Shown piece after piece: positions 10,588 through 55,883 of a stretch of 64,000 nucleotides of DNA. Within the stretch, counting starts at the first letter, position 1, and every line of letters begins with the position of its first letter. The notes below the pieces were generated by a model. That model saw nothing but the letters and a program-made list of their open reading frames with translations, made no database searches and had not been told where the DNA came from. This stretch comes from Candidatus Eiseniibacteriota bacterium (GTDB lineage Bacteria > Eisenbacteria > RBG-16-71-46 > JABDJR01), in NCBI GenBank assembly GCA_963762255.1, contig CAVXKA010000002.1, forward strand, positions 1,024,001 through 1,088,000. The letters run 5' to 3'. The position numbers and the translations under genes were made by a program.

Positions 10588-10627
10588 GGATGACTCGCGC
10601 GCGTGGGATGGCATGCTTCGGTCCAGT

Positions 10628-11206: not shown

Positions 11207-11217
11207 GGTTTGCCTCC

Positions 11218-13281: not shown

Positions 13282-13297
13282 GATCGATCACGCTCCT

Positions 13298-15057: not shown

Positions 15058-15113
15058 GGGTCGCTCCTTGATCCGCACCGCGGATCCCATGCGATACGGT
15101 AGGCCTGGAACGA

Positions 15114-15162
15114 GTCAAGGCGGCGTCAGGATCGGGTGGGGACGCATCAAGAAACGGTAAGG
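15114..15162 (-). promoter_or_regulatory. Putative KdpE-binding direct repeats
   Basis: Two pairs of TCAAG/TCAGG/GTAAG-like repeats at 10-11 bp spacing upstream of kdpF, as expected for OmpR-family sites. Confidence 0.4.
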
Positions 15163-22900: not shown

Positions 22901-23226
22901 GGGCGCTGGGGTTGGGTTGCAGCACGACCGGCGTGCCCGATGACAAGCCGCCCCTGCCGACTACCGCGATGCTACGCGCCTACCCCAACCCGTTCAGGGC
23001 GGATGTCACCCTGCTCGTCGCGGTCCCGGCCGGAACGACCGGCGCCATCGAGATCTTCGACGTGCGCGGCCGGCGCGTTCGCGCGTTCGAGGCTCGCACC
23101 GGAGAGACCGCCCTGCGTTGGGACGGACGCTCGGAACAAGGTGTCTCGCTACCTCAAGGCCTCTACTTCGTTCACTTGCGCGCGGGCGCGGAGTTCAGGA
23201 CGCAGCGGGTGATCCTGCTACATTGA
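19980..23226 (+). CDS. Tandem paralog of 16467-19823, with a +1 frameshift at ~20556
   Basis: TTG start after GAGG; ORFs 19896-20918 and 20395-23226 join. Copy 1 reads TGCATCTC where this copy reads TGCGATCTC (one extra base). Confidence 0.85.
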
Positions 23227-38110: not shown

Positions 38111-38286
38111 GATGTCTCCCGTACCCGCGGCCCAAGCCGCGGGGATGCTGGGGTAAAGAAGTAGCGATAAGATGATAGCCGTTGGGCCACAATGGGTCGA
38201 TCCAGTGTATCCCAAGCAAGCCCGAACGTGACGAGCACACCGGGAGCGCACCGACTCCCTCCATCCATGACAGGACCCCCGAACTC

Positions 38287-39461: not shown

Positions 39462-39498
39462 GCGAGAGCCCCCCGGCCAAAGGCCGAGGGGCTCTCGC
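39462..39498. terminator. Hairpin between convergent rnd and the cytochrome operon
   Basis: GCGAGAGCCCCCCGGCC-AAA-GGCCGAGGGGCTCTCGC; followed by ATTCTGCTT on the minus strand. Confidence 0.65.
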
Positions 39499-39555: not shown

Positions 39556-40587
39556 CTACTTCTGCGCCAGGGTCGGCTTCAAGGCCCCGTTCATGAATTG
39601 GATTGAGGATTCCAGGAGCCCCTTGACATAGGCCGGGTTGTGCACGCCGTGGCTTCGGTCATCCTCGGCCATGGCCAGGTTCCACACCGCTCCCGCGCTG
39701 TCCACAGAGGTCGTCACCACCTTGGGGCCGCCGTTGGCCCACAATCCAGCCGCCGTCAGCAGCTCCGCCAGTTCCTCCGCCATCGCGTCCACCTCGGTCT
39801 GGACGCCTGCGATGTCGAAGCTCTCGACGTCGCTGTGGCACTTCTCGCAGGCTGCGGTGTTCTCCAGCTCCTCCACGCTTCCATCTTCACCCCGGAGGGA
39901 GCCCACCATGTTGAACGAGTGCCCCCCGATCACATTGCTGCTGGTGACCCGGTAATGGCAGTCCAGGCATCCGTCGGTGACGGCGCTGCGGTGCTTGGTG
40001 ATGGCGTAGTCGTACCCCTCGTACTCGTACCCGTTCGAGCCGATCAAGATGTCGCCCTGGTTGCTGTAGTGCGGGCCCCAGTGGGTGCTGTTGATGTTCG
40101 TCCGGGCCGTGCCCTCGGCACCCACGTAGACGTTGACGTCCCGGCGGGAATGATGGCAGGCCACGCAGAGATTGCCGGCCCCCAGATCGAACGTCACCCC
40201 GTTCAAGAGGGTCGCCGTTTCCGTCCAGCGAAGCCCGAAGTCGCCGTCGGTATGCGGGCTGTGGCAAGTGAAGCAGTGAATCACGGTGGGGTTGGTGCTC
40301 GCCGTGACCGTCTCCCCGTTGACCCTCTGGATGAAGCCTTCGCTAATGTGGCACCCCGCGCAGCCGGCGCTTTCCCCTTCGGCCAGGCGGAGACCGCTGG
40401 CGTGGAAGGAATTCGCCCACTGAGCCTCCGCCGCGATCAGGAACGTGTTCTGGTCGCTATGGCACTCGAAGCAGGTCTGGGCCTCGCCGATCTGCTCCAC
40501 GCGAGTGATTTCGCGGTCGCATGCCGCGAGGGACACGACGAGCAGCACCATGAGCGCCGGTACTGCGACTATCGAGAATCGAGACAT
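39556..40587 (-). CDS. Hexaheme lipoprotein cytochrome c (OmcB/OcwA/NrfA-superfamily-like C-terminus)
   Basis: Lipobox LAAC; six CxxCH (CFECH, CAGCH, CFTCH, CVACH, CLDCH, CEKCH); helical C-terminus with DRSHGVHNPAY. Confidence 0.85.
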   Translation of the reverse strand: MSRFSIVAVPALMVLLVVSLAACDREITRVEQIGEAQTCFECHSDQNTFLIAAEAQWANSFHASGLRLAEGESAGCAGCHISEGFIQRVNGETVTASTNPTVIHCFTCHSPHTDGDFGLRWTETATLLNGVTFDLGAGNLCVACHHSRRDVNVYVGAEGTARTNINSTHWGPHYSNQGDILIGSNGYEYEGYDYAITKHRSAVTDGCLDCHYRVTSSNVIGGHSFNMVGSLRGEDGSVEELENTAACEKCHSDVESFDIAGVQTEVDAMAEELAELLTAAGLWANGGPKVVTTSVDSAGAVWNLAMAEDDRSHGVHNPAYVKGLLESSIQFMNGALKPTLAQK

Positions 40588-40618
40588 CTCACCCTCCTTG
40601 TCAGCTTTCGCCTTACGA

Positions 40619-42187
40619 CTACTTCGTGTGCAGGTCGTAAGCTACGTTGAACCAAACCACATTGGCGGTGTAGTAACGATCCAAAAGAATGAAATCATCG
40701 TAGTTATACACGTTGTACTTGATCTCGAAGTGGATATCGTCTTTGACGGTGTACATCCCTTCGAAGAATAGAATCGACTTCTCGATGTTCAGATCGGCGC
40801 CCACATCCATGTACGTGAGGCCGCTCGAGAGGCGGATATTCTTGATCCGCTCCAAGTCCACGCGGCCGGTGACGCTGTGGCTCTTGGCGTCGAAGGTGCC
40901 GTTGAGATCCTCGTACTCGTCGTTGGAGTACGCATAGGTTCCCGTCAATCCACCCCACTTCGGATAGGAGTACCGGGCATGACCGGAAACGGTCCGCCCC
41001 TTGGCGTTGACGTCGATGTCGGGAAAGTCCCGCTCACGAACATGGAACCCCGAGCCCAGAGCGAGACCCTTGACGGGCTTCACCTCGACATCTCCGCGAA
41101 AACGGGAGGTTTCGATGTCCTTGAGAAGGGTGAGTTCCTCCTGGTCCTTCTTCACCCTGCCCGCATACCGGAACCTGGCGGTCAGCAGATCGTCGTAACG
41201 GAAGCTCGTGGCGGCCCGCCAACTGTGGTACCGCGTGAGCGTGATGTCATTGTCGTTGATCTCGTAGCCGTAGCCCGCCGAGATGTCGCCGCGCCGGCAG
41301 AAGGCCGTAACGTCGACGTTGTTCTGGAAGCGATCCGTCTTGAGGCTGGTGGATTGGTTGTCGATTCGCTGGGCCTCGAAGTTGTACTTAAAACGCAACC
41401 GGTCGACCGGGCTGAGCACGCCGGTGTACTGGAAGTTCGCCAGGGTGTAGTCCAGATCCCCGGAGGAGAGCTTGCTCACCCCGTAGGCCGCGCGGAACAG
41501 ATGCGTCGACTTCTTGAAAAGGATGCCGGGGGCGGCGATCCGGGCCGACACGACCTGGCCGGTGCGGTCGGCGGCGGCGTTCCGCTCGTCGTTGAAATCG
41601 GAAACGCGATAGTCGACGGCTGCAACCTTCCCACCCTTGCGGGCCTCCGCCGAGAAGCGACCGGAGGAGAGGGAATTGTCGTACCGCCCACCCAGGACGC
41701 TGTTGGTTCCGCCAGGGTAGGACAGGCGGTCCCCGACCCGGGTCAGATAGTTCAAGGATCCCGTCAGGTTGATCCAGCGAGCCGGGGTCAGATGGGCGCC
41801 CAGGTTCCAGTCCCGGCGATCGGATGTCACGTTCCGCTCCGGGTCGAAGACCTGACGGTGCTGATCGAGGGAGGCGGTCAGCTTGAGCTTGCCCGGACGG
41901 CGGTAGAGCAGATTCGCCTGACGACCGTCGAGATTGATTTCCCGCAGGTCGATCATGAGGTAGCTCTCGGGATTCGGGGTTCCGGCCAGGCGGAGTTGGG
42001 TGATGGAGAATCCCTCGTGGATGTTGTAGGTCTCCTGGACCGTCGACCGATCCCCTTGCTCGTCGAGAAGCACGCCGCCCAACTTCACCGTCCCGTTCCA
42101 CGTCCCCGCCTGAAGCGGAGCCGCCCCCAAGGTGACGACGAGCAGGGCCGGAAGCGTCGCTAGCGTCCTCATTCGCATTCGCACCAT
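40619..42187 (-). CDS. Outer-membrane beta-barrel (MtrB/PioB-like conduit porin)
   Basis: Signal peptide; alternating aromatic beta-strands; ends WFNVAYDLHTK; lies between a decaheme and a lipoprotein cytochrome. Confidence 0.75.
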   Translation of the reverse strand: MVRMRMRTLATLPALLVVTLGAAPLQAGTWNGTVKLGGVLLDEQGDRSTVQETYNIHEGFSITQLRLAGTPNPESYLMIDLREINLDGRQANLLYRRPGKLKLTASLDQHRQVFDPERNVTSDRRDWNLGAHLTPARWINLTGSLNYLTRVGDRLSYPGGTNSVLGGRYDNSLSSGRFSAEARKGGKVAAVDYRVSDFNDERNAAADRTGQVVSARIAAPGILFKKSTHLFRAAYGVSKLSSGDLDYTLANFQYTGVLSPVDRLRFKYNFEAQRIDNQSTSLKTDRFQNNVDVTAFCRRGDISAGYGYEINDNDITLTRYHSWRAATSFRYDDLLTARFRYAGRVKKDQEELTLLKDIETSRFRGDVEVKPVKGLALGSGFHVRERDFPDIDVNAKGRTVSGHARYSYPKWGGLTGTYAYSNDEYEDLNGTFDAKSHSVTGRVDLERIKNIRLSSGLTYMDVGADLNIEKSILFFEGMYTVKDDIHFEIKYNVYNYDDFILLDRYYTANVVWFNVAYDLHTK

Positions 42188-42188
42188 C

Positions 42189-43154
42189 CTAGTACTGGTG
42201 ACACCCGACGTTGAAACAGCCTTGATCCTGGAGCGATTCGCTCAGGAAATTCCGGCTGACATAGGAACCGTGAATGTCGGTGTGACAGTCGTTGCAGGCC
42301 AGCTCCGCCCACTGGGTCCCGTGATAGGGATTCATCTTGTGGAGTGGGACGGAGTGGCACTGCGCGCAGAGCTGGAAATTCGGAGCCTCGTAGGGCTGCT
42401 TGAGCATCCTCGGCAGATACGATCCGTGGGGTTCATGGCAGGTCATGCACCCACCCTCCTCCGTGGAGTAGTCCACCGAGGCCTGGTGTTCGTAGGGGAA
42501 CGGCCCCTGGAATTCGCCGTGGCAACTCGTACACGCGTCGTTCATCCCATTCATGGAGAGTTCCCGAGTCGTCTTGTCCAGCGTCAAGTGGCACTCGGAG
42601 CACTTCACGATCCCGTCGTTGACGGGATGCCGCGAAGGCTTGGCGAATTCGCTCGCTACTGCGGTGTGGCACCCCTGGCATAGCTCCACCTCGGCCTCCT
42701 CGAGAAGAGAGGGTTGCTTGCCGGCGTGGACGCTGTGACAGGAACTGCAGTTCACGTCGTTTTCGGCGTGGACGTTTCTCTCCATCATGTTCTGTTGGTG
42801 CGGATTCAGATGGCAGGATGAGCAGATCTCGCCCTCGGCGATCGCGCCCACAGCAGCCGGGTTGGTCATCGGATACTGCTCTGGACTCTCCTCGTAGTGA
42901 CGAGAATCCCCGCGGTGACAATCGGTGCAGGCCGTCAGGACCTCGGTCTTCTCGCCGGATTTCTCGAAGAGCCGGTGGGCAGTCAGCGCGAGTGAGGCGT
43001 CAAGTCCCTCGTGGCACGCGAGACACGCCTCGCTCTCACGAGGATTGTCCGCGGCGGAGAGTTCCGGTTGCGACCCGGAAAGGAGGGCGATGAGGAAGGG
43101 GGCAAGGATCAGGACGGGTACGTAGCGACCGAGATGCTTGCTGTGCGCTTTCAA
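42189..43154 (-). CDS. DmsE/MtrA-family decaheme cytochrome with an extra C-terminal CX4CH
   Basis: Ten CxxCH; EFAKPSRHPV and GPFPYEH...C.TCHEPHGS MtrA-like motifs; ends CFNVGCHQY; TTG start after GGAGG. Confidence 0.88.
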   Translation of the reverse strand: MKAHSKHLGRYVPVLILAPFLIALLSGSQPELSAADNPRESEACLACHEGLDASLALTAHRLFEKSGEKTEVLTACTDCHRGDSRHYEESPEQYPMTNPAAVGAIAEGEICSSCHLNPHQQNMMERNVHAENDVNCSSCHSVHAGKQPSLLEEAEVELCQGCHTAVASEFAKPSRHPVNDGIVKCSECHLTLDKTTRELSMNGMNDACTSCHGEFQGPFPYEHQASVDYSTEEGGCMTCHEPHGSYLPRMLKQPYEAPNFQLCAQCHSVPLHKMNPYHGTQWAELACNDCHTDIHGSYVSRNFLSESLQDQGCFNVGCHQY

Positions 43155-43446
43155 CGAGTCCCCTCCGAAGAAAGACCGCCTGTGTACCTCTCAAGGACGG
43201 AACCTGCCGATACCCCAGAAGATCCGCCAAAGTGCTCTTCTTCTACTTGCCGGGCACTTTATCACGAGTATCGAGGCTTGTCTGTGCAGTCGACTGCCAC
43301 GGTCAAACTGCCATATCGGCAACTGCGCGGCAAGGCAATAGTGGAGAAAAGAGATAAGGTCAATCATGGAAAGCGAACGGAGCATTCACGACAAAATCGC
43401 TCCTATTTACCAGTGAGGCGACTCCCCCCCCCAACTGCGGAGCCTG

Positions 43447-46400
43447 CTACCGGCCCCCTCTTGGACGCGCTTCCAGGTCGCCGCCCTGATGACACTGCAC
43501 GCAGAGCAACCGCGTCTTGTCGTGGGTCAGAAGCTGCTCGTGGTCCGTGCCGTGCGGGTTGTGGCAGGAGGTGCACGTCAGATCCTGGCCGGTTCGCGGA
43601 TCCTTCTGCGGTCCCGAGTACGGGTGATAGTGCGACTCCGAGGCGTCGTGGCACTGGCCGCAAAGCGTCTGCTGGGGCTCGACCAGGATCCCCGCGTTCC
43701 CGCTGCCATGAGGATCATGGCAGGTGGAGCAGCCCCCGATGTCCGGGTGTTGGTACTTCGCGGCGAACATCTTGCGGTCGTGACAGGTCTGACAGGTCTT
43801 GGTCACGTCGTCGCGCACCAGCATCTCCTTGGTGCGGCCGGCGTGAGGCGAGTGGCAGTTGATGCAGCCCATGCCCGTCGTCACCGCGGCGTGCACGACC
43901 GGCTTCTCGGCGTCCTTCGCGTGACCACCGTGGCAGGTCACGCACAACGCCATCCCCTCCGCCTTGAGCCCTTCCTGCCCGGCGTGGCAGGCCATGCAGT
44001 CCTTATCCGCATAGGGTTTGTGCGAGAAGGCCAGCATGAGCCCCGCGTTCTTGGAACCGTGCGGGTCGTGGCAACTCGTGCACTTGGCCCCCTCGGCGTG
44101 GAACCCGCGGTGCTGTGCCAGGAACTGCGGGGCGCGCGGATCGTGGCAGGACGCGCAGAGTTCGCGCACCGGCGTGGTGAGGAGCCCTTCCTCCCGGCCC
44201 ACATGCGGGTCGTGGCATTGCTTGCACCCGGGATCCGTGACCGGTGCGTGCGTGAACTTCTCTTGGGTCTGCTTGATCACATCGCCGTGACAGTCCCCGC
44301 AGAGTTCAGGGCTCGCCTTGTTGAGAAGGCCGGGCTCGAATCCCTCATGGCCGCCATGGCAGGTGCGGCACTCCCCGGCCCGGGCGGGGGCGTGGACCAG
44401 CTCCGGGTTGGCGGAGCGGAGCTGCTGCGAGAGATCCGTGTGGCAGCGCTCGCACAGCTCCGAGGCTGTCTCGGGGAGAAGCTTCTTCCCCGAAGCGGCG
44501 TGCGGGTTGTGGCAGCCGCTGCAATCCCCCATCTCCACCGGGGTATGCAGAGCTTTGGGCGGTTTGGGCGGCTCGATCCCGCCGTGACAGCCGGCGCAGA
44601 GCTCCGCCTCCGGGGCCACCAGTTCCACCTTCGAGTCGGGCGACGGCGGCTTGTGGCAGGTCTCGCAGGAGCCGGGCCCGAACGGCTCGTGGCGCTCCGC
44701 ACGGAGAAGTCCCTTCTCCGATCCACGATGGGGATCGTGGCACGATAGGCAGTCGGTCTGCTCCACCGGGAAGCTCTCGTGGCTCCGCTTGAAGTCGCGA
44801 TCGGCTGCGTCGTGGCACGTCGTGCAAGGCGTTGCGAGGGCCACTCGTCCGTCGGCGGTGCGCGTCTGGTGCGCGCTGTGGCAGGTGGCGCACTCGCCGT
44901 TCTTGACCGGAGCGTGCACGACACCCGTGGCCAAGGACTCCTTCATCGTGTTGTGGCATGTGAAGCAGAGATCCGCGCCCGCCGCGCGCAGCAGGCTCTT
45001 TCCTTCCGGGATCGCGTGAGGATCGTGGCAAGAGTCACACTCACCCCGGGCGACCGGAGCATGCAGAGTAACGGCGGACGCGCCTCCGGCCGGCTCGCCG
45101 TGGCAGGTCGCGCACAGTTCCGCCTGCGTCGTCATGAGGAGCCCGGGCTCCTTCCCGCTGTGCGGCCGGTGGCAGGACGTGCATGCGTCGGTCTCGAAGG
45201 GAGGATGCTTCTGGGGCATCCGCATCTGGTCGACTTGCTCACGGTGGCACTGCAGGCAGAGCGCCGGCTGCGCCTTCGTTCCGAGCGCCGGCAGATCCGA
45301 CCCGTGAGCGGTGTGGCATGCCGCGCAGGTGCCGTCCAGGAACGGGAAGTGGACGATCGGTTCCTTGCCTTCCTTGGCCAGGCCGTCGTGACAGCTCTCG
45401 CATAGAAGGGCCTCGGGCTGGGCGAGAAGGGCCGTCTCCTCGCTTACATGGGGGGCATGACAGGTCCGGCAGTCCCCTTCCATGGGGGCATGGGGGACCT
45501 TTGCCGCCGCTGCCTTCTCCACCGCGGCGCCATGACAGGAGCGGCAGAGCACCTCCGAGGATTCGGTCAGCATCCCCTTCCCACCGCCGCCGTGCGCCTT
45601 GTGACATGAATCGCAGGCGAGCTCATCGAAAGGCTGGTGCTTGGAGGCCAACTCCGGATTCTGGCGCGGGTCCTCGTGACAGACGAAGCAGAGCTCTTCA
45701 GCGCTTCCCTTGAGCAGGCCCTTGCGGTCGGCCTTGTGAGGATCGTGACAGAAGAGGCAATCCCCTTCCGCCGCCGGCGGGTGGCCGTGGTCCGCCTTGG
45801 CCACATCCCCCACGTCGCTGTGGCAGGTGATGCATAGCTCTTCCTTGGGGGCGGTGAGGACTGACGGATCGTCCGGCAACCCGCTGTGGCAGGCCTGGCA
45901 GTCGGCTTCGGCGTAGGGGGCGTGGACAAATCCCCCTCCCTTGCCCTGTGGCGATCCGTGGGGATCGTGACACGACGAACACAAGAGCGCCCGCCACCTC
46001 CGGTCGAGTATGGAGTTCCGGCAACTCGGAAACGGGACCGTGGCAGCGGGCGCAAAGCTCGGCTTCGGGCGCGATCAAGAGCCCGGGATAATCGGACTGA
46101 TGCGGGGCATGGCAGGTCTCGCACTTGCCCTCGGCAAAGGGGGCGTGTTTTGCGGGGGATGCCTGGGCCTGGGCAAGTCGCGGGTGGCATGCCGCGCAGA
46201 CTTCCGCCGCTGGGGCGGCGAGGAGTCCCTTGCTGTCGGAAGCATGCGCGTCGTGGCACGAGACGCAGGAAACGCCCTTCGTCGAAAGATGGTCGAAGCC
46301 GCCCTCGGCGGGCTTCGGGTCACCGCGCCGGGGTGGCAGAGGTGCAGAGTTCGGGAAGATCCTTCTGCAGGATGAGTTTCTGCGCAAACCCGTGTCGTTT

Positions 46401-46605
46401 GTGGCAACTCTCGCAGTCCTCGGCCTTCACCGGGTCGTGCACGACCTTCTTCTGCGCGTACTCGTCCTGCGCCTTCTGATGGCAGTCGTAGCACCGACGC
46501 CGGGGCTGGGCATCCGAGCGCCCCGACAGCAATGACGCCACCACCCCCATGCCTAGAGCAAGAGCGAGTATCGCCAGTGCGACTCAAACGGATGCGGCCG
46601 CTCAT
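43447..46605 (-). CDS. Giant periplasmic multiheme cytochrome, ~1,050 aa, ~42 CxxCH, interrupted by ~4 single-base frameshifts
   Basis: 35 CxxCH in ORF 43447-45984, 4 in 45698-46387, 2 in 46320-46550, plus one (CT.CH) across a shift at ~46340; signal peptide VALAILALALGMG; repeated H.P...CxxCH.PH...LL....ELCxxCH units. Confidence 0.82.
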
Positions 46606-46606
46606 C

Positions 46607-47087
46607 TCACTTCTCCTTCTCGGACACCTTGGGAGTCTCAGGCTTCGAAGAAGGCCCCTTGTAGCCGAGCACTTCCTTCAGCTGGAAGGAGTAGAACGAT
46701 TTCGACGAGAAATGGGGCGGAAAGTTCAGAAACGCCCAGGAGCTGTCCACCGCTCCGGTGTCGGCGAGGACGAAGACCTGGACGGCGGGGTTGTTCATCG
46801 CCTCGGAGAGGTTCAGCATCTTTCCGTCGATGATGCGGAAGTCGGTCAGGAACTGCTTGACCGTTCCGCTGAGCGGCGTGTCGCCGAAGATAGAACTTCT
46901 CCCCGATTCGGACGGTGTGATCTTCCTTCCAATCCGGGTAGAGCCGGTTCCCCGCCTGAATCACGAACTTGAGCGTCGTGTCGGTGATGGCCGGCACGGG
47001 CTTGGGTGCGGATTCCTGGGAGTGGGCAGGGTCCGCGGTGCACCAGCACATGAGACCCAGCACACTCGCAACCAGCAGGCTCTTCAA
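46607..47087 (-). CDS. Secreted protein, DUF2155/ResB-like, with a frameshift at ~46887
   Basis: Joined sequence ...EKFYL|GDTPLSGTVKQFLTDFRI...NNPAVQV...WAFLNFPPHF; signal peptide. Confidence 0.6.
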
Positions 47088-47091
47088 GATG

Positions 47092-47712
47092 TCACCTCTC
47101 CTCTCCCGCCGGGGTCGAGGCGCGCTGACGCTTGCCTCCCCTCGATGCGGGGAACGTCTTCATAATCTCTTCGACCGCGTCCGCCGCGAGCCGCTCCAGG
47201 TTCGTGACGCGACCCAGGCCGAACACGGTCTCGCCGTCGCTCCCTCCACGACTGTGTACTGCGCTCCAGAGAACCCTGCCACCCGGCGCCTCGATGAGAC
47301 GCAGCGAGAGAGACACCTCGGGCAACGAGCCCTCGGGATCCTCGCGCAAGCCGTAGGCGAGTACCGCCCCGAGCAAAATGGCGTCCGCGCCCATCTCGGC
47401 GCCCAATGTATCGACGAGATCCGGCGGAAGCCGATCGATCATGAGCCACGGCTCCTTGGAAAGCGCTTCCTCCACCCGGCCGGACTCGACGACCTCTATG
47501 TCACGGAACTGGGAGAGCGCCACCGCCACCATGGGCCCCAACCGCTCCGGCGCTTCACGCGAGTCGGAGTAATTCGCCAGCGGAAGCACGGCGATCCGCA
47601 TCGGGCCGGCTAGTGGTTCTGCAATGTACGCCTGGGGCGACGGTGCGCATGCGGCCAACCCCAGCGCCCAGAGCGCCGCCGCCAGAGTGATCATCCCGCG
47701 CGACCGTTTCAT
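47092..47712 (-). CDS. Lipoprotein, CsgG/PelC/TolB-N-like fold
   Basis: Lipobox LAAC; IAVLPLAN...GADAILLGAV..Y...VSLSLRLIE...GRVLWS. Confidence 0.7.
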   Translation of the reverse strand: MKRSRGMITLAAALWALGLAACAPSPQAYIAEPLAGPMRIAVLPLANYSDSREAPERLGPMVAVALSQFRDIEVVESGRVEEALSKEPWLMIDRLPPDLVDTLGAEMGADAILLGAVLAYGLREDPEGSLPEVSLSLRLIEAPGGRVLWSAVHSRGGSDGETVFGLGRVTNLERLAADAVEEIMKTFPASRGGKRQRASTPAGEER

Positions 47713-47717
47713 GGTTC

Positions 47718-48320
47718 TCAGTTCCTCGGCAGCGTCTTCAGAAAGTCACGACACACCGACGTCGTGAGCTCGCCCATCGTGTGGATCTCGCCGCCGCCGA
47801 AGAGACCCAGAATCCAACTCACCACCGGAGTTCCCGGCCCTCCGCGACGGGTGTCGCTCGCGCTCCAGACCAGCTTCCCGGACGCCGCATCGACCAATCG
47901 CACCTCCATCGAAAGCAGCGGAAACGCCGAGCGACCGGTGCGAGACATCTCGTACTCGCGCACCGTGCCCAAGAACACCCCCTCGACGCCGAGTTCCTCC
48001 GCCAGACGGGCCAGTTCCTCCGCCGACCATGGATTCTCGACCGGTGTCCCCCCGCGCAGCTTGACCACAGCGGCGGAGAACTGACCGGGCTCAACTACAT
48101 CCGCGAATCCCCGGCGAAGCAGCTCGCTGAAGAAGATGTCGCTCACGCGATATCCGGCCCCGCGATCCTGGGACAGCGACGTGAAGGGGATGATTGCCAC
48201 TTTCTGGTAATAGGGCAGGTCCGCTTCGGGGTTCACAAAGGCGGAGGAACCGCCACAGCCGACGACCGAGATCAAGAGCACCGCCATCGCCAGCTCCACC
48301 GCCTTCATCCGTGCACTCAT
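47718..48320 (-). CDS. Lipoprotein, CsgG/PelC/TolB-N-like fold (paralog of 47092-47712)
   Basis: Lipobox VVGC; VAIIPF...LGVEGVFLGTVREY...MEVRLVDA.SGKLVWS. Confidence 0.7.
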   Translation of the reverse strand: MSARMKAVELAMAVLLISVVGCGGSSAFVNPEADLPYYQKVAIIPFTSLSQDRGAGYRVSDIFFSELLRRGFADVVEPGQFSAAVVKLRGGTPVENPWSAEELARLAEELGVEGVFLGTVREYEMSRTGRSAFPLLSMEVRLVDAASGKLVWSASDTRRGGPGTPVVSWILGLFGGGEIHTMGELTTSVCRDFLKTLPRN

Positions 48321-48347
48321 GTCGTGTGTGACTCCCTGCTGTCCGAT

Positions 48348-50012
48348 CTAAAAGCTTCTGTCGAGGGTGAAGCCGTAGCTGTCGGCTCCGCGGCCGTAAC
48401 GCCACGGATCCTGGAGCGATCTGCGCGCGGCACGGCGCCATTGGACCTTGGCTCGGAGCTCGCTGGGCAACCAGAAGCCCAGATCGACGCCGCCGATTAT
48501 CTCACCGGTGCGCGAGCTCAACACCAGAGACTCCCTGCGGGACCAGTCCACGGAGAGCGTCGCCTCTTCCGAGATGCGTATGCCCGCGCTCACCGTTCCA
48601 AAGCGCTCCTCGCGGACGAGCCGGCCCGTGCCGGCAAGCCGCCGATACGAAGCAATGAAACTCGACCGGGGAACCGGCTGGTACCCAACCGTGTACTGCC
48701 ACTCCTGATCGGTCTGAGCCTGCCCGTCGAACATGGGCAGCGTGTCCCGGCGCCAGGTGATCTCACAGGTCGCGTTGCTGACGGGGGCGGTGCGAAGCTG
48801 GAGCGATCGTCCCCATTGCGTACCGGTCTGTGAGGCGCCGATCACCGCCCTGGAAGCCCGCAACTCGGCCCGCGCGGCGATCCCCTGGCGAAGTCTGCCG
48901 TCCAGCAGACCGTAGACCGTGTTCAGAGGGATGGAGCCGTTCCGGCTTGCCAGGTCCACCGCGCGTTGAGCGCCGGCCTGGAGGACCAGTCCTCGAATGA
49001 GGTCGCGAGCGAATGTCGCCTGGCCCTGCACATAGTCCGAGACGATGTCTCCTCCCGTCTGGGTCTGCTGCCGGTACTCGCGCAGAACACGAAGGCTCAT
49101 CCCGTCAATCGGCCGGTAGTCGGCGCTTCCGCTCAGGAATCGTTCCGCGCGAGACCTGGAGTCGGGAAGCGCATTGTCCTCGGCCCGGCCCCACTGCACC
49201 GTGCCCGATCCGCCGACCGAGAGCCGACGGCTGGGATTCCAGAAGGAGGACACACCGGTGCGCTGGCTGTACTGCTTGCGGTCGCGGTCCCGGGTCGAGT
49301 ACGTGGAGTAGCTGGCGTCATAGGAGGCTTGAGCGGACACGGCGCGCCAGGCTCTCGAGCCTTGTAGGGCGGCCCGCCAGTCATCCGTGTTGGAGCGAGC
49401 ACCCAAAGAGGAGGAAGACGGCGCGCTCTGAAGGCGCCGATAAGCCAAGGTGCTCCCCACGCCACCCCGGGAATAAGCGAGTTGGCCCCGCCAGTCGTCG
49501 GACCAGGAACGCTCGCTGCGCACACCGCTGGCGGTCCACGTGGGCGCGTCTCGATCCAGTCGATGGTAGTGCGCGCTCAGGCTGGGCGCCCCTGCCGGAG
49601 ACGCATTGAGATCCACTTGGGCCACGCGTTCCCGAACGCCGCCCACACCCGAATCCACGCCCTGCCATGGCACGAACTGGGTCCGAATGCGTACCGTCGA
49701 CTTCTGCGCGTCCGCGTACCAGCGATGCCGGAGAAGGTCACCGTCGCCGGACTCGAGCCCGTACCGGGTGTTGCGGCTGTAGTAGGCAAACGATCCTCGC
49801 AGCGTGACCGCGACGCCGCCCGGGAAATCGCTGCTGCCGCGCAGGTCGAGGTTGCTCCGCCAGGTGTCCTCGGAAATCGTGTCCTCCGTGCGCAGGAAGG
49901 AGGACACCCAGTTCCCCTGCATCGCGTGGACCGACCGGGGAGCCAGGAGCGCCAGAGCGGCCAGGAAGCCGACGCGGCAGCCTGCAATGATCGCCACCCG
50001 GAACACCGTCAA
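48348..50012 (-). CDS. Outer-membrane beta-barrel protein
   Basis: Signal peptide ending VHA; amphipathic Trp/Tyr/Arg strands; C-terminal YGFTLDRSF (BAM-type terminal Phe). Confidence 0.75.
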   Translation of the reverse strand: MTVFRVAIIAGCRVGFLAALALLAPRSVHAMQGNWVSSFLRTEDTISEDTWRSNLDLRGSSDFPGGVAVTLRGSFAYYSRNTRYGLESGDGDLLRHRWYADAQKSTVRIRTQFVPWQGVDSGVGGVRERVAQVDLNASPAGAPSLSAHYHRLDRDAPTWTASGVRSERSWSDDWRGQLAYSRGGVGSTLAYRRLQSAPSSSSLGARSNTDDWRAALQGSRAWRAVSAQASYDASYSTYSTRDRDRKQYSQRTGVSSFWNPSRRLSVGGSGTVQWGRAEDNALPDSRSRAERFLSGSADYRPIDGMSLRVLREYRQQTQTGGDIVSDYVQGQATFARDLIRGLVLQAGAQRAVDLASRNGSIPLNTVYGLLDGRLRQGIAARAELRASRAVIGASQTGTQWGRSLQLRTAPVSNATCEITWRRDTLPMFDGQAQTDQEWQYTVGYQPVPRSSFIASYRRLAGTGRLVREERFGTVSAGIRISEEATLSVDWSRRESLVLSSRTGEIIGGVDLGFWLPSELRAKVQWRRAARRSLQDPWRYGRGADSYGFTLDRSF

Positions 50013-51139
50013 GGAGGCCCGCCTTCACCCTCGCCTGGGTTGTGCACGTTGCTGCCGGTCGGGCTCGAGTAGTCCCGGCCATGGCAGTCGTAACAGCTCT
50101 TGGCGGAGTTGAGACGGTGCGGACCTTGGTCGGGGAGCGTATTCATCACGATCCCCTCTACGGTCTGGGTGCCTGGGATCCCGCCCGACGGGATGTGGCA
50201 ACCGAGGCAGAACTTCCGGCACTGGGCGGCGTCGGTGAGCGTGCTGGTGAGGCCGCTCCAGTTCGTCCGCTGGTCGCTGATCAGGAAGGCGTTGGGCTGC
50301 ACGCTGTTGTTCCCCTGGGAACCGTGAGGGTTGTGGCAGTCGTAGCAGGGAAGCATGTCGCCCACTTGGATATGCGCGGGCCAGGAGATGGCGACGTCGG
50401 GGTTCCGCCGGATGCGGTGCCCGCCGTGGTCCGGGTTCAGGCCGGCATCGTAGTAGTCCTCGATGAACCGGCTGCCAAGATCCATCCCTGCAGGGCCGTC
50501 GTTGCCGTGGCAGTCGAAGCACAACCTATACTGGTCCGGGGCGCCCATCGAAGCGTGGCCGCCGATACCGCCGTACTGCGCGATCAGGAGGTCACGCGGG
50601 TTCGGGGCATCGTGAGGCGTGTGACAATTCAGACAGAGCCCCTGCCCGGAGGGATCCTGTCGCGGCATGTCCGGATCCAACGCATGAGGCGAGATGTAAT
50701 GCCCCGAGGTGGTCATCGCGGGGTTTGTATAGACGCTCTCGCCGGGCCAACGGCCGCGCAGCTCCACTCCGATCCGCCGCACACCGGCGTTGTTGGCTTC
50801 GAAGTAGCCCGCGTCGGGTTCCGTCTCGGGCAGTCGGTCGGTCTCACCCAAGGGATAGTTCTGGGGCCGGGCGCGGTGGCAGGGACCGTCTCCCTGGTCC
50901 CAGAAGGCGATGCGGTTGACGTTGTCGGTGAAGAGTTCGATGGGAAAGACCGGAGCGTTCGGGGAGTCTTCGTGGGTCGCGTGGCACTGCCGGCACTGGC
51001 CGCGCGTGGAGGGAACCGTAACGAGGCGCTGGACCCCGGTGTTGGGGTCGGCGTGGGGATCGTACGTCGTTTGTGCGGAGATGGTCCAGGCGGCCAGAGT
51101 CAGGACGCCGGTGAGAACCACGCCGGAAACTGGTCTCAC
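50009..51139 (-). CDS. Hexaheme cytochrome c next to the OmcS-like gene
   Basis: CRQCH, CLNCH, CFDCH, CYDCH, CLGCH, CYDCH plus a lone PCH; probable GTG start at 51139 with signal peptide. Confidence 0.8.
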   Translation of the reverse strand: MRPVSGVVLTGVLTLAAWTISAQTTYDPHADPNTGVQRLVTVPSTRGQCRQCHATHEDSPNAPVFPIELFTDNVNRIAFWDQGDGPCHRARPQNYPLGETDRLPETEPDAGYFEANNAGVRRIGVELRGRWPGESVYTNPAMTTSGHYISPHALDPDMPRQDPSGQGLCLNCHTPHDAPNPRDLLIAQYGGIGGHASMGAPDQYRLCFDCHGNDGPAGMDLGSRFIEDYYDAGLNPDHGGHRIRRNPDVAISWPAHIQVGDMLPCYDCHNPHGSQGNNSVQPNAFLISDQRTNWSGLTSTLTDAAQCRKFCLGCHIPSGGIPGTQTVEGIVMNTLPDQGPHRLNSAKSCYDCHGRDYSSPTGSNVHNPGEGEGGPP

Positions 51140-51283
51140 GCTCGACTCCGTCGGCCACCTTCCGGAACGCGGAATCAACAACGGCAGACCCAGGCTGCGG
51201 GCACCGACAGTGGCCGGATTGTCGGTGCCCGCGCCCAAGCGTCGTATTCAGGCTATGGAGAGATTAGCTCTCCAGGTCTTGCA

Positions 51284-52366
51284 TCACCAGGTCGTCGAGC
51301 TGCCTCCCATGCCGTGGCACTGGCGGCACATGTTGCGGGCGTCAACGCCGTCGTCGCCCTGCTCAGTGACCGTACCGGTTCCCAGCATGTAGATGAGGCC
51401 GAACGCGTTCTGGTTGCCATGACCCTTGTGGCAGCTCATGCACGAGGGGGTCAGGTCGGTGTCGGCAGCCAGATAGGTGCCGGCACGCTTGCCAGCGGGG
51501 GACATGACCTGGACCTGGTTCACCTTGCCGGCGAACCGGCTGAGGCTGGAGTGGCCGCCGCCGACAGCGCCGATGTTCACGGTGCTGGACGGGTGACGAT
51601 GGAACTCCTCCCAGATGCCGCCGCCGATGTCCACGCCGCCGACCTCAGCACCGCCCATGTCGCCATGGAAGTTGGTGTGGCAGGACTTGCACAGGTTGGC
51701 GTAGGCCGACGCAGTCGCCGAGGGCTCGTTGAACGTGATGTGGTTGTAGCCGTAGTGATTGGCACTCGTGCCACTGGAGGCATCCTCGAACACCGAGAGG
51801 GCCAGGTTGTTCGCGCCGTCCGCGTCCAGGCGCGAGTAGCCGATGCTCGCCGTGCCGGACCGGTACAGGTTGCGATACCCGCCGTTGGTGACACCGGTGG
51901 GAAGGCCGCTGGCCCGCCCGTGCGGCGAGTGGCAGTCGGTGCACTCGAGACCGTCTGCATTGGTGAACGTGCCGCCCGGAGCGACGTCGGTCGAGTTCAG
52001 GGTGTGTCCGGCCGCGGCCGGGTAGAGGCCGTTGCCGCCCACCTCGTTCAGAGCGCCAGCCTGACGGACGTAGCCGTTGGTGTGGCCCTCGAACACGTCG
52101 GGCGCCCAGCTCTGCCCGTCATGGCAGCCAAGGCACATGTCGTTGATGTCGTTGCGGAGCAGGAACTCGTACGGGCCAGCGGCGCCGAGCGGGTTATAGA
52201 TCCCACTTCCGTTGGCGTTGTAGCCATGGGTCTGGCTGTAGTGCATCACGTGACAGTCGGAGCAGATCAGGGTCGAGTTCATGTGGAAGTCGCCCGCGAA
52301 GCTCACAGACGCCAGCGCGGCCACAGCGACGAGGACCCCCACGTGGAGCATGAGTTGTTTCCTCAT
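51284..52366 (-). CDS. OmcS-like hexaheme cytochrome (candidate nanowire subunit)
   Basis: Signal SFA|GD, then FH-x6-CSDCH-VMH; CLGCH; CTDCHSPHG..YRNL; CKSCH..FH; HRHP; SCMSCHKGH; terminal CRQCH. Six motifs in the OmcS order and context. Confidence 0.8.
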   Translation of the reverse strand: MRKQLMLHVGVLVAVAALASVSFAGDFHMNSTLICSDCHVMHYSQTHGYNANGSGIYNPLGAAGPYEFLLRNDINDMCLGCHDGQSWAPDVFEGHTNGYVRQAGALNEVGGNGLYPAAAGHTLNSTDVAPGGTFTNADGLECTDCHSPHGRASGLPTGVTNGGYRNLYRSGTASIGYSRLDADGANNLALSVFEDASSGTSANHYGYNHITFNEPSATASAYANLCKSCHTNFHGDMGGAEVGGVDIGGGIWEEFHRHPSSTVNIGAVGGGHSSLSRFAGKVNQVQVMSPAGKRAGTYLAADTDLTPSCMSCHKGHGNQNAFGLIYMLGTGTVTEQGDDGVDARNMCRQCHGMGGSSTTW

Positions 52367-53412
52367 CACCACCTATACCTCCCTTGCAGTGTTGCGAGAC
52401 TCGCCCCGGCTGCACCGGGGCCTCCTTGCTCGAGGGTCGCACCCGCAGGATGTTCGGATGCCGGTACTTGGACCTCGAGCACCTGGAAGCGAGCTCCCAC
52501 CCGCTCCAAGACCACGAGACGGTCGGGCGCAAGAAACGCGCAGCCGCTCGGATAATCGAACTGGCCGGGACCGTGGCCGAAGCCGCCGATCCGACCCAAA
52601 TACGTGCCCTGCACATCGAAGACGCTGATCGAGTGGCGAACGGTGTCGGTGACCCAGAGCGTCCCACCGGGTCCCCACGTCACGTCGCTCACCATGGAGA
52701 AGGTGCCGTCGCCTTCGCCGTGTCGTCCGAATGCGGTGATAAGGGTGCCTTCAACGGAAAAGAGAAGGACGGGCTTCTCGGCCATCGGGTCGGCCACCGC
52801 GATCATCGTCTCGGTCGGATCCACGTCCAGGGCGGTGGGGCCGGTGAACGGGCCCGTCTCGCTGGAATCGAAGCCGACATGGGTGACCGGTCTGCCATCC
52901 GAATCGCCTACCACAAAGCCGGGCCGCTCACCGCCGCAGAGAAGGTAGATCCGACCGCTCGGGCCGATCACGATGTCCTGAGGACGGGCATCGTCGCCGA
53001 CTCCTTCCGGGAGAAGCGACGGGAGATACGCGAGGTGCGTGCCGCGGGGGGTGAGTACTTCGACTTCGCGGCTCATGTTGTCGACCAGGAAGAGCCGCAT
53101 GCGCCGGTCGACGGCGAGAGACCGGGGCTCGCTGGCGTCCTTGCCGTTCGGCAGATCGAAGGCCACGACGCCCCGGGAGCGATAGGCCGCATCGAACGTG
53201 GCGATCCGGTGATTTCCGGTATCGGCGATGACGATCATGCCCCGGGACGGGTCCGTGACGAGGCCCTGGGGACGCTTGAAGGCGTCGAGAGGCGCCGGGC
53301 CCTGGACGATGGCCAGGACCGACTTGATGGCGGGTTCGCTGGCCTCGGCGGAGGGGGCCAAGGCCACCACCGCTGTACCCAGCGTAACTAGCACCGCGCG
53401 GCGCAGATGCAT
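52366..53412 (-). CDS. Secreted NHL-repeat beta-propeller
   Basis: FKRPQGL..D...IADTGNHRI, FGRHGEGDGTF and GHGPGQFDYPSG repeats; TGATG overlap with the OmcS-like gene. Confidence 0.9.
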   Translation of the reverse strand: MHLRRAVLVTLGTAVVALAPSAEASEPAIKSVLAIVQGPAPLDAFKRPQGLVTDPSRGMIVIADTGNHRIATFDAAYRSRGVVAFDLPNGKDASEPRSLAVDRRMRLFLVDNMSREVEVLTPRGTHLAYLPSLLPEGVGDDARPQDIVIGPSGRIYLLCGGERPGFVVGDSDGRPVTHVGFDSSETGPFTGPTALDVDPTETMIAVADPMAEKPVLLFSVEGTLITAFGRHGEGDGTFSMVSDVTWGPGGTLWVTDTVRHSISVFDVQGTYLGRIGGFGHGPGQFDYPSGCAFLAPDRLVVLERVGARFQVLEVQVPASEHPAGATLEQGGPGAAGASLATLQGRYRW

Positions 53413-53506
53413 GAATCCTCTCCAAGCAGCCCATGGCGCCAGAGGCCTGCCCCTGCGGAGGGCGCGGGCCGGAATACGACGTCCAAGAGATTATCTTGAA
53501 AAGAGA

Positions 53507-53524
53507 ATGTGATCTATTTCACAA
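53507..53524. promoter_or_regulatory. Rex/CRP-type palindromic operator upstream of the NHL-OmcS operon
   Basis: ATGTGATCTATTTCACAA (minus strand TTGTGAAATAGATCACAT) equals TGTGA-N6-TCACA, in an AT-rich patch ~95 bp before the ATG; -10-like GATAAT at 53490-53495 on the minus strand. Confidence 0.65.
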
Positions 53525-53627
53525 AAGCGATAACGCATTTTGCGCGAACGGATTGTGCAGTATATTGGGCACCGTAAAGCATTGACCGCCAACAGAATAG
53601 ATGATTTGTGTCGTGTTTAGGGGCTCA

Positions 53628-53671
53628 CAAAAGAACCGGCCCGCCGAGGCTTTCGCTCCAGCGGGCCGGTT
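53628..53671 (-). terminator. Rho-independent terminator after the c554-like gene
   Basis: AACCGGCCCGC...GCGGGCCGGTT stem followed by CTTTTG on the minus strand. Confidence 0.65.
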
Positions 53672-53712
53672 GAGAGGCATACAGGGCCGAGCCCCGAATC
53701 AGGTCGGTCGGA

Positions 53713-54285
53713 CTAGCCGCCCGCCTTCGGGATCGGGTGCGCGATCTTCTTGACGTACTCGGCGAACTTGAACTCCTTGTGGAAGGGGTTCCCCTCCGCC
53801 TTGTGGCAGGTCATGCAGAGCTTCTCATCCGGCGCGAGCAGGCCGACCGTCTCCGGCTTCACCGTGCCCGCGTAGAGCTCCTTCATAACCTTCATGTCCT
53901 TGTATGCGCTCCCCGGGCCATGGCAGCTCTCGCAGGACACGCCCTCTTCGAGCGTGATCTTCTGGGTGGCCAGGTCCTTCATGACCGAGAACGCGGTCAC
54001 GTGGCAGCTCAGGCACTTTTCGGACTTCTGCGGGTCGTCGATCCCCAGTTCCTTGGCCTTCGCCTTCGACTCGGGGCTCGCGAGCGACGCGTACGCCTTG
54101 GCGTGAGCGCTCTTCTCCCACAGCGCGAACTGGTTACCTGTGGCGTCCTTGCTGTGGCACATCTTGCAGTTCTTGATGCCCATGTAGGTGTTCGCCTTGG
54201 CGGGCTCAGCGGCGAAAGCCGCCATGCAGGACAAGGTCAGGAACACCCCCACGAGCGCGACGATCAGAGTCTTCTTCACTGTCAT
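53713..54285 (-). CDS. Periplasmic tetraheme cytochrome, c554-like
   Basis: Signal peptide ending AFA; YMG...CKMCH...W.KSAHAKAY; CLSCH; GVSCESCHGPGS; CMTCH. Confidence 0.85.
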   Translation of the reverse strand: MTVKKTLIVALVGVFLTLSCMAAFAAEPAKANTYMGIKNCKMCHSKDATGNQFALWEKSAHAKAYASLASPESKAKAKELGIDDPQKSEKCLSCHVTAFSVMKDLATQKITLEEGVSCESCHGPGSAYKDMKVMKELYAGTVKPETVGLLAPDEKLCMTCHKAEGNPFHKEFKFAEYVKKIAHPIPKAGG

Positions 54286-54368
54286 TGAACCTCCCCTACC
54301 CGATTCCGGGTTCGCTGTCCGACCAGGCACCTTACTGCCGGAAACCGCCCGCCGACAAGCATCTTCTC

Positions 54369-55883
54369 CTACTGCATGGGAGGGAAGACGCTGTCGTCGC
54401 CGGTATGACAGTCCGTGCACGGCATCTCCGTTTCGGCCCCGCCGATATCCGCCGGGTGCCGGAAAGGCAAGCCGGCGGCTACCAGAGTGTCCCCGATCTC
54501 GTGCACGATGCCCTGCGAGGCGATCGTGTGGCAGAGGTTGCAGTCATCGCTGATCCCCTCGCCATCCGCGGTCCGCAGGTCGGAACCGTGACACCGGAAA
54601 CACCCCGGATAGATGAAATGTCCTCGATTCTCGGGATAGCGGTCCCAGCGGACCCGCATCTCCGGAAACATGTTCTTCCCGTAGATATCCTGAACGGCGG
54701 CGATTGCTTCCGGGGGAAGTGAGACTCCCTGTCCCTCGTAGAAGGCTCCCATCGCCAGCGCGATGGAATCTCGTGCCCCTGCCGTCGTGGCGTAGTTCCG
54801 GGAGAGGGCCTCCACCGCCACGCGCTTGATCCACGGGATGCCAGGATCGAGCCTCCCGGAGGCCATCGCCTCGTTCACCGTCTCCATCGGGGAGCGATAC
54901 CGATGTGAGGGCCGGTTGTGGCAGTCCATGCAGTCGAACGGCCGGACGAGCTTCTCAGCCCGCTTGCGCACCAACACCGAGTCCGGGAGCGGCTCTCCGC
55001 CGCGCGTGTAGACGACTTTCCGGCCGTCCTTGGACCAGGTGACTTGGTCGAAGCCCTGGCGCGACCCATCGGTCGCGACATAGGTCATGTGGTTGGCCTT
55101 GTCGATGTGCCAGTGGATGCCGGTGGGCCTTCCTTCGGGAGAGGCCGAGGTGCCTCCCACCCGGACCAGCAGGTTGATCCGCCATTGCGTGTTCTCGCGG
55201 TCACTCAGGAAATGGTCGCGGATGACCTGAGTGGCGGGGAAGAACTTCTGGGGCCAGTGGCACTCCTCGCACACTTCCTGCGCGGGTCGCAGGTTTTCGA
55301 TGGGGGTGGGGATCGGCCGGGGATAAGTACCCAGGACGGTCTTTACGACCTGTCGGGCGCCGGAGAGCTTGCTCTTCACGTACCAGCCCGCGCCGGGCCC
55401 GATGTGGCAGGCAGCGCATTCCACCTGGGCGTGGGAGGAGTTCATGTAAGCGGTGTACTCAGGGTTCATCACCTGATGGCAGACCTTGCCGCAGAAGGAC
55501 ACCGATTCGGTGTACTGGTAGCCCTGGTAGAGACCGATCGTGGTGATGAGGAGGAAGGTGCATGCTCCAACCAGCGCGGTGACCATGAGGTTGCGGTGGT
55601 GGGCGTTGCCGAGATCGATGATGAGCGGCCGTGTCTTCCCCGATTCGCGGCGCTTCTTCTCGCGCCACATCCCGAATGGGACCAGGAGGAGCCCGAGCAC
55701 CATGATTCCGGGAAAGACGATGAACGTGAAGATCCCCAGATAGGGGTTGGAACCCTTGGCGAAGACGCTGAGCAGGAAGAGGATGATGATGGCGGCCAGG
55801 CCGAAGAGGGCCAGCCCCAACCCGAGCAGGGTGAAGAAGTTGTAGACCAACCCGGGGTAGCGCCCCTTCAGGTTCGTTTCCAT
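54369..55883 (-). CDS. NapC/NirT-family membrane-anchored heptaheme quinol oxidase (ImcH-like)
   Basis: Three N-terminal TM helices; YTES..FCGKVCH..M.PEY; CAACHIGPGA.WY..SKLSG; CEECH, CMDCHNRPSH, CFRCH, CNLCH, CTDCH. Confidence 0.85.
   Translation of the reverse strand: METNLKGRYPGLVYNFFTLLGLGLALFGLAAIIILFLLSVFAKGSNPYLGIFTFIVFPGIMVLGLLLVPFGMWREKKRRESGKTRPLIIDLGNAHHRNLMVTALVGACTFLLITTIGLYQGYQYTESVSFCGKVCHQVMNPEYTAYMNSSHAQVECAACHIGPGAGWYVKSKLSGARQVVKTVLGTYPRPIPTPIENLRPAQEVCEECHWPQKFFPATQVIRDHFLSDRENTQWRINLLVRVGGTSASPEGRPTGIHWHIDKANHMTYVATDGSRQGFDQVTWSKDGRKVVYTRGGEPLPDSVLVRKRAEKLVRPFDCMDCHNRPSHRYRSPMETVNEAMASGRLDPGIPWIKRVAVEALSRNYATTAGARDSIALAMGAFYEGQGVSLPPEAIAAVQDIYGKNMFPEMRVRWDRYPENRGHFIYPGCFRCHGSDLRTADGEGISDDCNLCHTIASQGIVHEIGDTLVAAGLPFRHPADIGGAETEMPCTDCHTGDDSVFPPMQ

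Follow-up and report, generated by a model that had tools for sequence, protein, structure and literature searches.

Can one locus outside Geobacter and Shewanella encode a route for electrons from the quinol pool to the cell surface, and if so, is that route of a new kind? The question is raised by positions 39556-55883 of a 64,000-nucleotide stretch of a Candidatus Eiseniibacteriota genome (assembly GCA_963762255.1, contig CAVXKA010000002.1, positions 1,024,001 to 1,088,000 of the forward strand), the whole of which is called the window here. A preliminary description had counted 13 co-oriented minus-strand genes in this region, seven of them for multiheme cytochromes with 7+4+6+6+~42+11+6 heme motifs, and had taken them together for an apparently complete extracellular electron transfer (EET) chain and a candidate for an undescribed system. 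The counts were right. As for the system, the locus is probably an EET gene cluster made up of three modules, each of an already known kind, and represents a new combination rather than a new system.

The 13 minus-strand genes follow one another head to tail and are labelled, as transcribed, from A to M (Table 1). A and B form module 1, C to J module 2 and K to M module 3. The cluster carries 79 CXXCH heme motifs, one CX3CH motif (in A) and one CX4CH motif (in K). The plus strand of the cluster is free of CXXCH, and so are all six frames of the window's remaining 47.7 kb. The motifs number 7 in A (six CXXCH and the CX3CH), 4 in B, 6 each in D, E and M, 11 in K (ten CXXCH and the CX4CH) and, as counted in intact orthologs, 42 in J. 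The host assembly totals 4.14 Mb over 3 contigs and is 93.6% complete, with 0.1% contamination. A single copy of each of A, F, G, H, K, L and M is present in this genome, which also contains four COX1-family oxidase genes and three cytochrome c maturation matches. The host is a facultatively aerobic Eisenbacteria-type bacterium. This lineage had been surmised beforehand, and a genome of the same family (G050) indeed belongs to Candidatus Eisenbacteria; the contig is not from Geobacterales.

Related genomes hold different parts of the cluster. In the same genus, G052 (locus L003) displays the order AKR-A-B-C..J-RNaseD without K-L-M, AKR being an aldo-keto reductase gene. In the same family, G048 (L092, G048:C3:497000-516999) has AKR-A-B-K-L-M without module 2, which is the simplest form of the locus, and G050 (L006, L094) has AKR-A-B-C..J-K-L-M. 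Modules 2 and 3 are adjacent, in a rearranged order, in a member of another family (G138, L089), and K-L-M occurs alone within the stretches fetched from G049 and G139. These arrangements indicate that A-B is a shared input, beside which two output modules come and go. The single locus-wide chain of the preliminary description thus gave way to three separable modules, with relatives carrying A-B with C-J, A-B with K-L-M, or all three; this swapping of modules at one site is new. In the window itself, two module ends are marked by terminator-like hairpins, one following B and the other following M, and a 200-nt AT-rich spacer follows the hairpin between B and C.

Concerning the distribution of module 2, a search of genome contigs with a D profile gave 160 stretches, 136 of them encoding relatives, and the best 80 were kept, corresponding to 79 loci. 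The presence of genes in these loci was judged by tblastn with a coverage of at least 0.5. Matches to C were found in 69 loci, to E in 54, to G in 65, to H in 64 and to J in 57. C, D, G, H and J occur together in 50 of the 79 loci; among the 35 loci that have full 10-kb flanks, 29 hold all five. In most loci F has diverged too far to be detected in this manner (13/79), and a barrel-sized open reading frame (ORF) occupies the gap between E and G; 28 such ORFs were aligned with F. Fifty-eight apparent matches to K were cross-hits to the N terminus of J and were left out of the count of MtrA genes. The loci derive from metagenome-assembled genomes of Eisenbacteria, Krumholzibacteriia, Zixibacteria, Ignavibacteria, Gemmatimonadota, Latescibacterota, Glassbacteria, Acidobacteriota and others, and those of the Ignavibacteria and Zixibacteria type have the order J-(D')-E-F-G-H-C-D. 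Within the phylum of the host, 62 of the 206 species genomes have a D homolog (E <= 1e-20); among those of high quality the figure is 42 of 121, and by genus it is 26 of 83. L was present in 22 of the 206 genomes. Module 2 is conserved across Eisenbacteria, Zixibacteria, Ignavibacteria, Gemmatimonadota and related groups, and the expectation that gene order would persist in relatives was borne out for the C-J core.

The first module consists of the two genes that had been described as ImcH-like and c554-like, and both assignments held, the former by architecture and the latter by a PF13435 match. A has three N-terminal hydrophobic segments (residues 11-47, 47-74 and 98-119, Kyte-Doolittle), and its CX3CH motif (CGKVCH, at residue 131) lies by the third membrane segment. 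Matches were obtained to NapC/NirT (PF03264, E 2.2e-8) and to NrfH (TIGR03153, E 3.4e-15, below the cut-off). ImcH homologs are described, in PMC6295460, as proteins of 495-519 residues with three transmembrane segments, an atypical CX3CH beside the membrane domain and six CX2CH motifs. Length, the three helices, the position of the CX3CH, the six CXXCH and the NapC/NirT-like region of A all match ImcH (GSU3259) as described, and by this comparison A has the ImcH architecture. The likely start of B is Met 46 of a 235-residue ORF, with a signal peptide judged by eye. In a 2018 survey of ImcH loci, no mtrAB or mtoAB genes were found adjoining imcH (PMC6295460). By contrast, mtrAB-like genes follow imcH and the c554-like gene both here and in G048, and in the latter only the c554-like gene stands between them. 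This linkage of imcH to mtrAB is new.

The third module resembles the conduits MtrCAB of Shewanella (6R2Q) and MtoAB/PioAB, with an MtrA-like cytochrome, a probable barrel from a family with MtrB_PioB matches and a lipoprotein with an MtrC/MtrF domain in a row. The proposal that K is MtrA-like was sustained by its match to the MtrA chain, and its ten CXXCH and C-terminal CX4CH were kept in 4 of 4 relatives checked. In the case of L, the PF11854 MtrB_PioB family was matched by 6 of 24 members of its protein family (best 1.3e-7), and the L profile matched that of the other barrel, F (hhalign 95.6% over 420 columns). An Atlas feature search, taken as a lead only, pointed to MtrB_PioB-bearing clusters. 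Judged from these family profiles, the evidence points to L being an MtrB-type barrel. M contains a PF22113 MtrC/MtrF domain (32.7 bits against a cut-off of 30), and searching the Protein Data Bank (PDB) with the single sequence gave no meaningful match. The module differs from MtrCAB in the eleventh motif of K, in the length of the barrel (522 residues in L against 649 in the MtrB chain) and in the surface cytochrome, which carries 6 hemes in M and not 10.

The second module contains two hexaheme cytochromes. D had been called OmcS-like, and the family profile identifies it as a distant homolog. The D family comprises 709 proteins at E <= 1e-3 among 8000 scored candidates; the 120 of the 709 that were listed are 51-88% identical, and some are named cytochrome c3 family, Candidatus Eisenbacteria. 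A profile of 29 members matched OmcS (6ef8_A) with an E value of 4.8e-9 and 39.1 bits, and the next PDB match had an E value of 0.63. The alignment runs through three collinear stretches that begin at the mature N terminus. His44 of D, three residues past the His of the first CXXCH (CxxCHxMH), is invariant in 29 of 29 members and aligns with the His of the TMH sequence in OmcS. In the work of Wang et al. from 2019, this residue (His16 of OmcS) is reported to ligate a heme of the neighbouring subunit. The retention of this inter-subunit His suggests that D may polymerise. A lone paralog of D is present in the host genome (G000:C3:709011-709949, L002), with ~28-33% identity, a 389-residue frame and 7 CXXCH; no paralogs of F, G or H were found anywhere in this genome.

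E belongs to a distinct family, whose similarity to that of D is confined to a local stretch of 70 columns, and a PDB search with its single sequence gave no meaningful match. In five loci of the Gemmatimonadota/Glassbacteria type (L027, L035, L040, L046 and L066), a D-like paralog and E are fused in a 12-heme protein of ~700-760 residues, and in L030, L041 and L071 E corresponds to the N-terminal half of a 12-heme protein of 705-720 residues. The fusion of a D-like protein with E argues that the two hexahemes work together. The NHL propeller of the preliminary description, C, was recovered with PF01436; PF18764, the NosZ propeller, gave no match, which is uninformative as the control was silent too.

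The two barrels and two lipoproteins that had been noticed were also recognized. The structural model of F is an outer-membrane barrel, in agreement with the reading of these barrels as porins; L is assigned to them by profile. The best Foldseek match of F was MtrB (6r2q_B, E 6e-10, TM 0.50/0.44), ahead of TonB-dependent receptors and LptD. G and H are paralogs of each other (hhalign 100%, E 3e-43). Lipoboxes were evident in both sequences, with Cys at position 22 invariant in both family alignments. Both proteins are homologous, over most of the chain, to PelC of Pel polysaccharide export (5T11, 9H80), and like PelC they are encoded beside a large barrel. The arrangement differs from the Pel system in that two paralogs are present instead of one, the barrel is MtrB-like and not PelB, and the presumed cargo is a cytochrome and not a polysaccharide. 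The PelC-like nature of the two lipoproteins is new. A complex prediction of F, G and H gave a score of 0.01, which counts as evidence neither way. The small secreted protein I matched no Pfam family. Its ortholog in L003 (P0241) is intact, with ~157 residues. An assignment to DUF2155, which had an Atlas lead score of only 0.83-0.84, was rejected.

The largest protein of the cluster is J. In the window it consists of an 845-residue ORF with 35 motifs, 6 further motifs upstream in two other frames, and one motif broken by an indel. PF09699 matched in 18 stretches and the DmsE-family TIGR03508 in 8 stretches (354 bits). The orthologs in L003 and L006 are intact, with 1050 and 1066 residues, respectively, and 42 CXXCH each. 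We examined 45 J-like ORFs and excluded 6 that run off the end of their locus; among the 39 complete ORFs, which share 35-78% identity with J of the window, 42 CXXCH were found in 37, 41 in one and 36 in one. The spacing of the CXXCH is in register over 20 loci, with alternating gaps of ~25 and 23 residues and the same irregular steps. When the L003 ortholog was searched exhaustively against 1.84 billion representatives, 5198 matches at E <= 1e-3 were obtained. From the 150 matches listed, 16 were fetched, picked by length and collinearity. Among the full-length collinear relatives (1028-1086 residues), 7 of 8 have 42 CXXCH and one has 40. Shorter relatives of 611-689 residues (P0263, P0270, P0271, P0276, P0278, P0283 and P0290) align with the N-terminal portion of J (query start at residues 9-34, end at 530-650); 6 of these 7 have 26 CXXCH, one has 25 and an atypical motif, and 3 of 7 have a lipobox-like N terminus. 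The remaining relative is of a different build, with 38 CXXCH. GSU2495 of Geobacter is given as a protein of ~70 kDa with 26 hemes in PMC12977616. Together with this figure, the 42- and 26-CXXCH relatives indicate that the J family has at least two fixed sizes. The fixed 42- and 26-heme size classes are new, and a literature search for a 42-heme cytochrome found no relevant paper among those listed.

The features of module 2 resemble the Geobacter osc genes. The 2025 abstract of Shen et al. reportedly speaks of a beta-propeller-like OscD, channel-like OscEFG and the peptidyl-prolyl isomerase (PPIase) OscH. In PMC13194489, omcS, omcT and oscC belong to the osc operon, and roles are proposed in folding (OscH), secretion (OscE, F and G) and morphology (OscD). 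PMC12977616 states that every Geobacter genome with the omcS-like hexaheme gene GSU2501 has an eight-gene block, GSU2500-GSU2493, downstream. This is presented as a maturation/secretion block that includes the 26-heme GSU2495 (PMC13194489, PMC12977616). As gene classes, module 2 and the osc genes of G. sulfurreducens (GSU2504-GSU2493) both have an OmcS-type and a second hexaheme cytochrome upstream, a beta-propeller, an outer-membrane barrel, two lipoproteins and a giant paired-CXXCH cytochrome. They differ in gene order, in the heme number of the giant cytochrome (42 here against 26 in GSU2495), in the additional small secreted protein I and in phylum. By analogy, matching gene class by gene class, module 2 appears to be a relative of the Geobacter omcS/osc block. 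The suggestion of an undescribed system consequently fails for module 2, which matches the osc block as described in PMC13194489 and PMC12977616.

Table 1. Genes, hairpins and bordering genes of the cluster, with positions in the window.
Feature	Position	Strand	Basis or remark
Aldo-keto reductase (AKR)	56154-57158	+	bounds cluster on one side
A, ImcH-type inner-membrane heptaheme cytochrome, 504 aa	54369..55883	-	membrane segments, motifs, NapC/NirT region
B, secreted c554-like tetraheme	53713..54285	-	PF13435 E 1.6e-16; 4 CXXCH
Terminator-like hairpin and U-rich run between B and C	53634..53669	-	-35.3 kcal/mol, z -3.4
C, secreted NHL-repeat beta-propeller	52366..53412	-	PF01436 E 1.6e-15
D, secreted hexaheme, distant OmcS homolog, 362 aa	51284..52372	-	family profile against OmcS
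E, second secreted hexaheme, distinct family, start codon uncertain	50009..51238	-	6 CXXCH
F, 28-strand outer-membrane beta-barrel, C-terminal Phe	48348..50012	-	AF2 pLDDT 92.6
G, PelC-like lipoprotein, 200 aa	47718..48320	-	profile against PelC 5t11 E 2.6e-9
H, PelC-like lipoprotein, 206 aa	47092..47712	-	profile against PelC 9h80_C E 3.5e-13; 5t11 E 3.6e-11
I, small secreted protein, family-less	46607..47087	-	frame-broken; ortholog intact in L003
J, 42-heme secreted cytochrome, paired-CXXCH repeats	43447..46605	-	largest open piece 43447-45984
K, MtrA-like periplasmic cytochrome, 10 CXXCH and CX4CH	42189..43154	-	MtrA 6r2q_A E 1.6e-29
L, probable MtrB/PioB-like outer-membrane barrel, 522 aa	40619..42187	-	family-profile evidence
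M, hexaheme lipoprotein, presumed surface cytochrome	39556..40587	-	lipobox SLAAC, 6 CXXCH
Strong terminator-like hairpin closing the cluster after M	39462..39498	-	17 pairs, z -5.5
RNase D	38182-39450	+	bounds cluster on other side

The homologies, the barrel fold, the conservation of synteny and the modular distribution are demonstrated by the results above; the localisations, protein partners, filament formation and outward direction of electrons in the following scheme are what we infer. In module 1, the ImcH-type cytochrome A would draw electrons from the quinol pool in the inner membrane and hand them to B, a presumably soluble periplasmic tetraheme. In module 2, the barrel F and the PelC-like lipoproteins G and H would form an outer-membrane passage through which the OmcS-like D, perhaps together with E, would be exported and then retained at the surface, where D may polymerise. 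The propeller C would act on the surface assembly, and J may serve as a long heme wire of fixed length that feeds the module from the periplasm. In module 3, K, L and M would constitute an MtrA/MtrB-type conduit capped by a hexaheme lipoprotein and suited to short-range transfer.

A number of points weigh against this interpretation. The profile match between D and OmcS is weak, at 39 bits; a PDB search with the single sequence of D gave no meaningful match, and its AF2 model, based on a 29-row alignment, is unusable (pLDDT 40.9). According to PMC12977616, only OmcS itself is known as a wire, and nanowire calls based on homology are error-prone. The E profile found nothing significant in the PDB (OmcS, E 0.16). 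L itself had no match in Pfam or the PDB, nor did its profile find anything in the PDB, and the TIGR03508 (DmsE family) score of K, 176.5 bits, is below the cut-off of 192.2. Module 2 has been likened to OscD, E, F and G by architecture and published descriptions rather than by alignment. No OscH-like PPIase domain was found in the 13 proteins, the rest of the genome not having been searched, and the reading frames of J and I are interrupted in this assembly. The chain can accordingly not be called complete, as it had appeared to be: two genes are broken, a PPIase is absent from the 13 proteins, and filaments and the direction of flow are inferred. Contigs of the RNA library X18 (~93-99% identical) overlap portions of D (51477-51865) and C (52260-52591) as well as the junction of A and B (54315-54506), but since DNA is possible in such libraries, they no more than hint at expression in a close relative. 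Stretches without X1 or X18 cover were not taken as absence. A scan for sigma-70 promoters gave no sites, and a sigma-54 consensus gave 28 matches against 54 expected, none of them upstream of the modules.

We also considered whether module 2 is a porin-cytochrome conduit and not a filament exporter, with J threading F in the manner of MtrA in MtrB, an arrangement we regard as unlikely. The PelC-like lipoproteins would then form a collar, and D and E would be monomeric surface cytochromes fed by J, a version we hold to be no more probable. The closest structural match of F to MtrB and the profile-level homology of the F and L families suit such a conduit, as do the DmsE/MtrA-like units of J, the 42 hemes fixed in 37 of 39 orthologs and the co-occurrence of J with G and H in most loci. 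On the other hand, PelC homologs are known from polymer export, which suits secretion, D retains the inter-subunit His of OmcS, and the Geobacter block is described as one for maturation and secretion in PMC13194489 and PMC12977616. Conduit and export are not exclusive of each other. Carried further, J would be a fixed-length wire with quantised hemes (42 or 26) that spans the periplasm and threads F within a PelC-like collar; the osc apparatus would be primarily a conduit that charges a surface cytochrome, and not only a secretion device, and would connect directly to an ImcH/c554 input that also serves an alternative output of MtrAB type at the same site. We put this forward as a speculative picture with a small chance of being right.

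The direction of electron flow is a further point on which our outward interpretation may be challenged, and it cannot be fixed from sequence alone. MtrAB-type conduits also work inward in Fe(II) oxidisers, as stated in PMC6295460, and the locus might supply the quinone pool with electrons taken from Fe(II), minerals, cathodes or partner cells. Models for this would be MtoAB/PioAB and the outer-membrane cytochrome clusters of Desulfovibrio ferrophilus, as proposed for those systems. NHL-associated cytochrome clusters have been tied to electron uptake in D. ferrophilus and Tenderiales (PMC5815863 and a Tenderiales preprint), and the four COX1-family oxidases of the host could be sinks. The 2018 survey, however, recorded ImcH homologs in Fe(III) reducers only and interpreted them as quinol oxidases (PMC6295460), and no Cyc2 or rusticyanin-type partner is present within the cluster. 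We judge an inward-running locus, and its likeness to the uptake systems named, to be improbable, and retain outward transfer.

The broken frames of J and I bear on whether module 2 is functional in this host. Compared with the intact L003 ortholog, I has one extra base near 46891, and J has +1 near 46582, -1/+2 near 46340/46321 and +1 near 45982, all within ~0.9 kb; the indel near 46340 breaks one CXXCH. Two independent DNA runs (X2 and X3) provided Logan contigs, ~94-97% identical, that lack the two bases at 46320 and, among the listed indels, one base each at 46558 and 46581. As the breaks are absent, at least in part, from orthologs and near-identical contigs, they are probably local consensus errors of the assembly. 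Two other observations concern such repeats. At G000:C3:874338-882362, 101 intact CXXCH lie ~70-75 nt apart in 23 successive runs of changing frame, representing either one ~2700-residue cytochrome with many indels from the assembly or a gene that is itself heavily broken. At 43568-46400 of the window, X1 and X18 contigs join across 0.9-2.5 kb inside J with short sides of 21-29 letters, which is probably mis-joining between heme repeats and not real deletion. That module 2 is decaying here, with J and I as pseudogenes and only A-B and K-L-M functional, might be read from four indels in ~0.9 kb and from the same-family G048, which has A-B-K-L-M without module 2, but it is the most doubtful of the alternatives, as 35 motifs are intact in what remains of J, neither a premature stop nor a lost motif was seen beyond the indels and the one CXXCH broken near 46340, the X2/X3 contigs lack the extra bases, the pattern in the giant cytochrome region at C3:874338-882362 resembles local consensus error, and the other ~45 genes of the window look intact.

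Elsewhere in the window, two plus-strand genes (16467-19823 and 20395-23226) encode large proteins of 1118 and 943 residues with right-handed beta-helix/NosD-like repeats, and a complete kdpABC-kdpD potassium pump operon lies on the minus strand at 7891-15118.

If our interpretation is correct, Geobacter-type machinery for cytochrome surfaces or filaments would be common in uncultured phyla of soil and sediment. Such machinery could be coupled genetically to an ImcH-type quinol oxidase, and evolution would freely mix it with an Mtr-type conduit. The strict count of 42 hemes in J provides a testable handle on the passage of electrons across the periplasm, and the compact single locus is a handy candidate for the heterologous rebuilding of a chain from inner membrane to cell surface.

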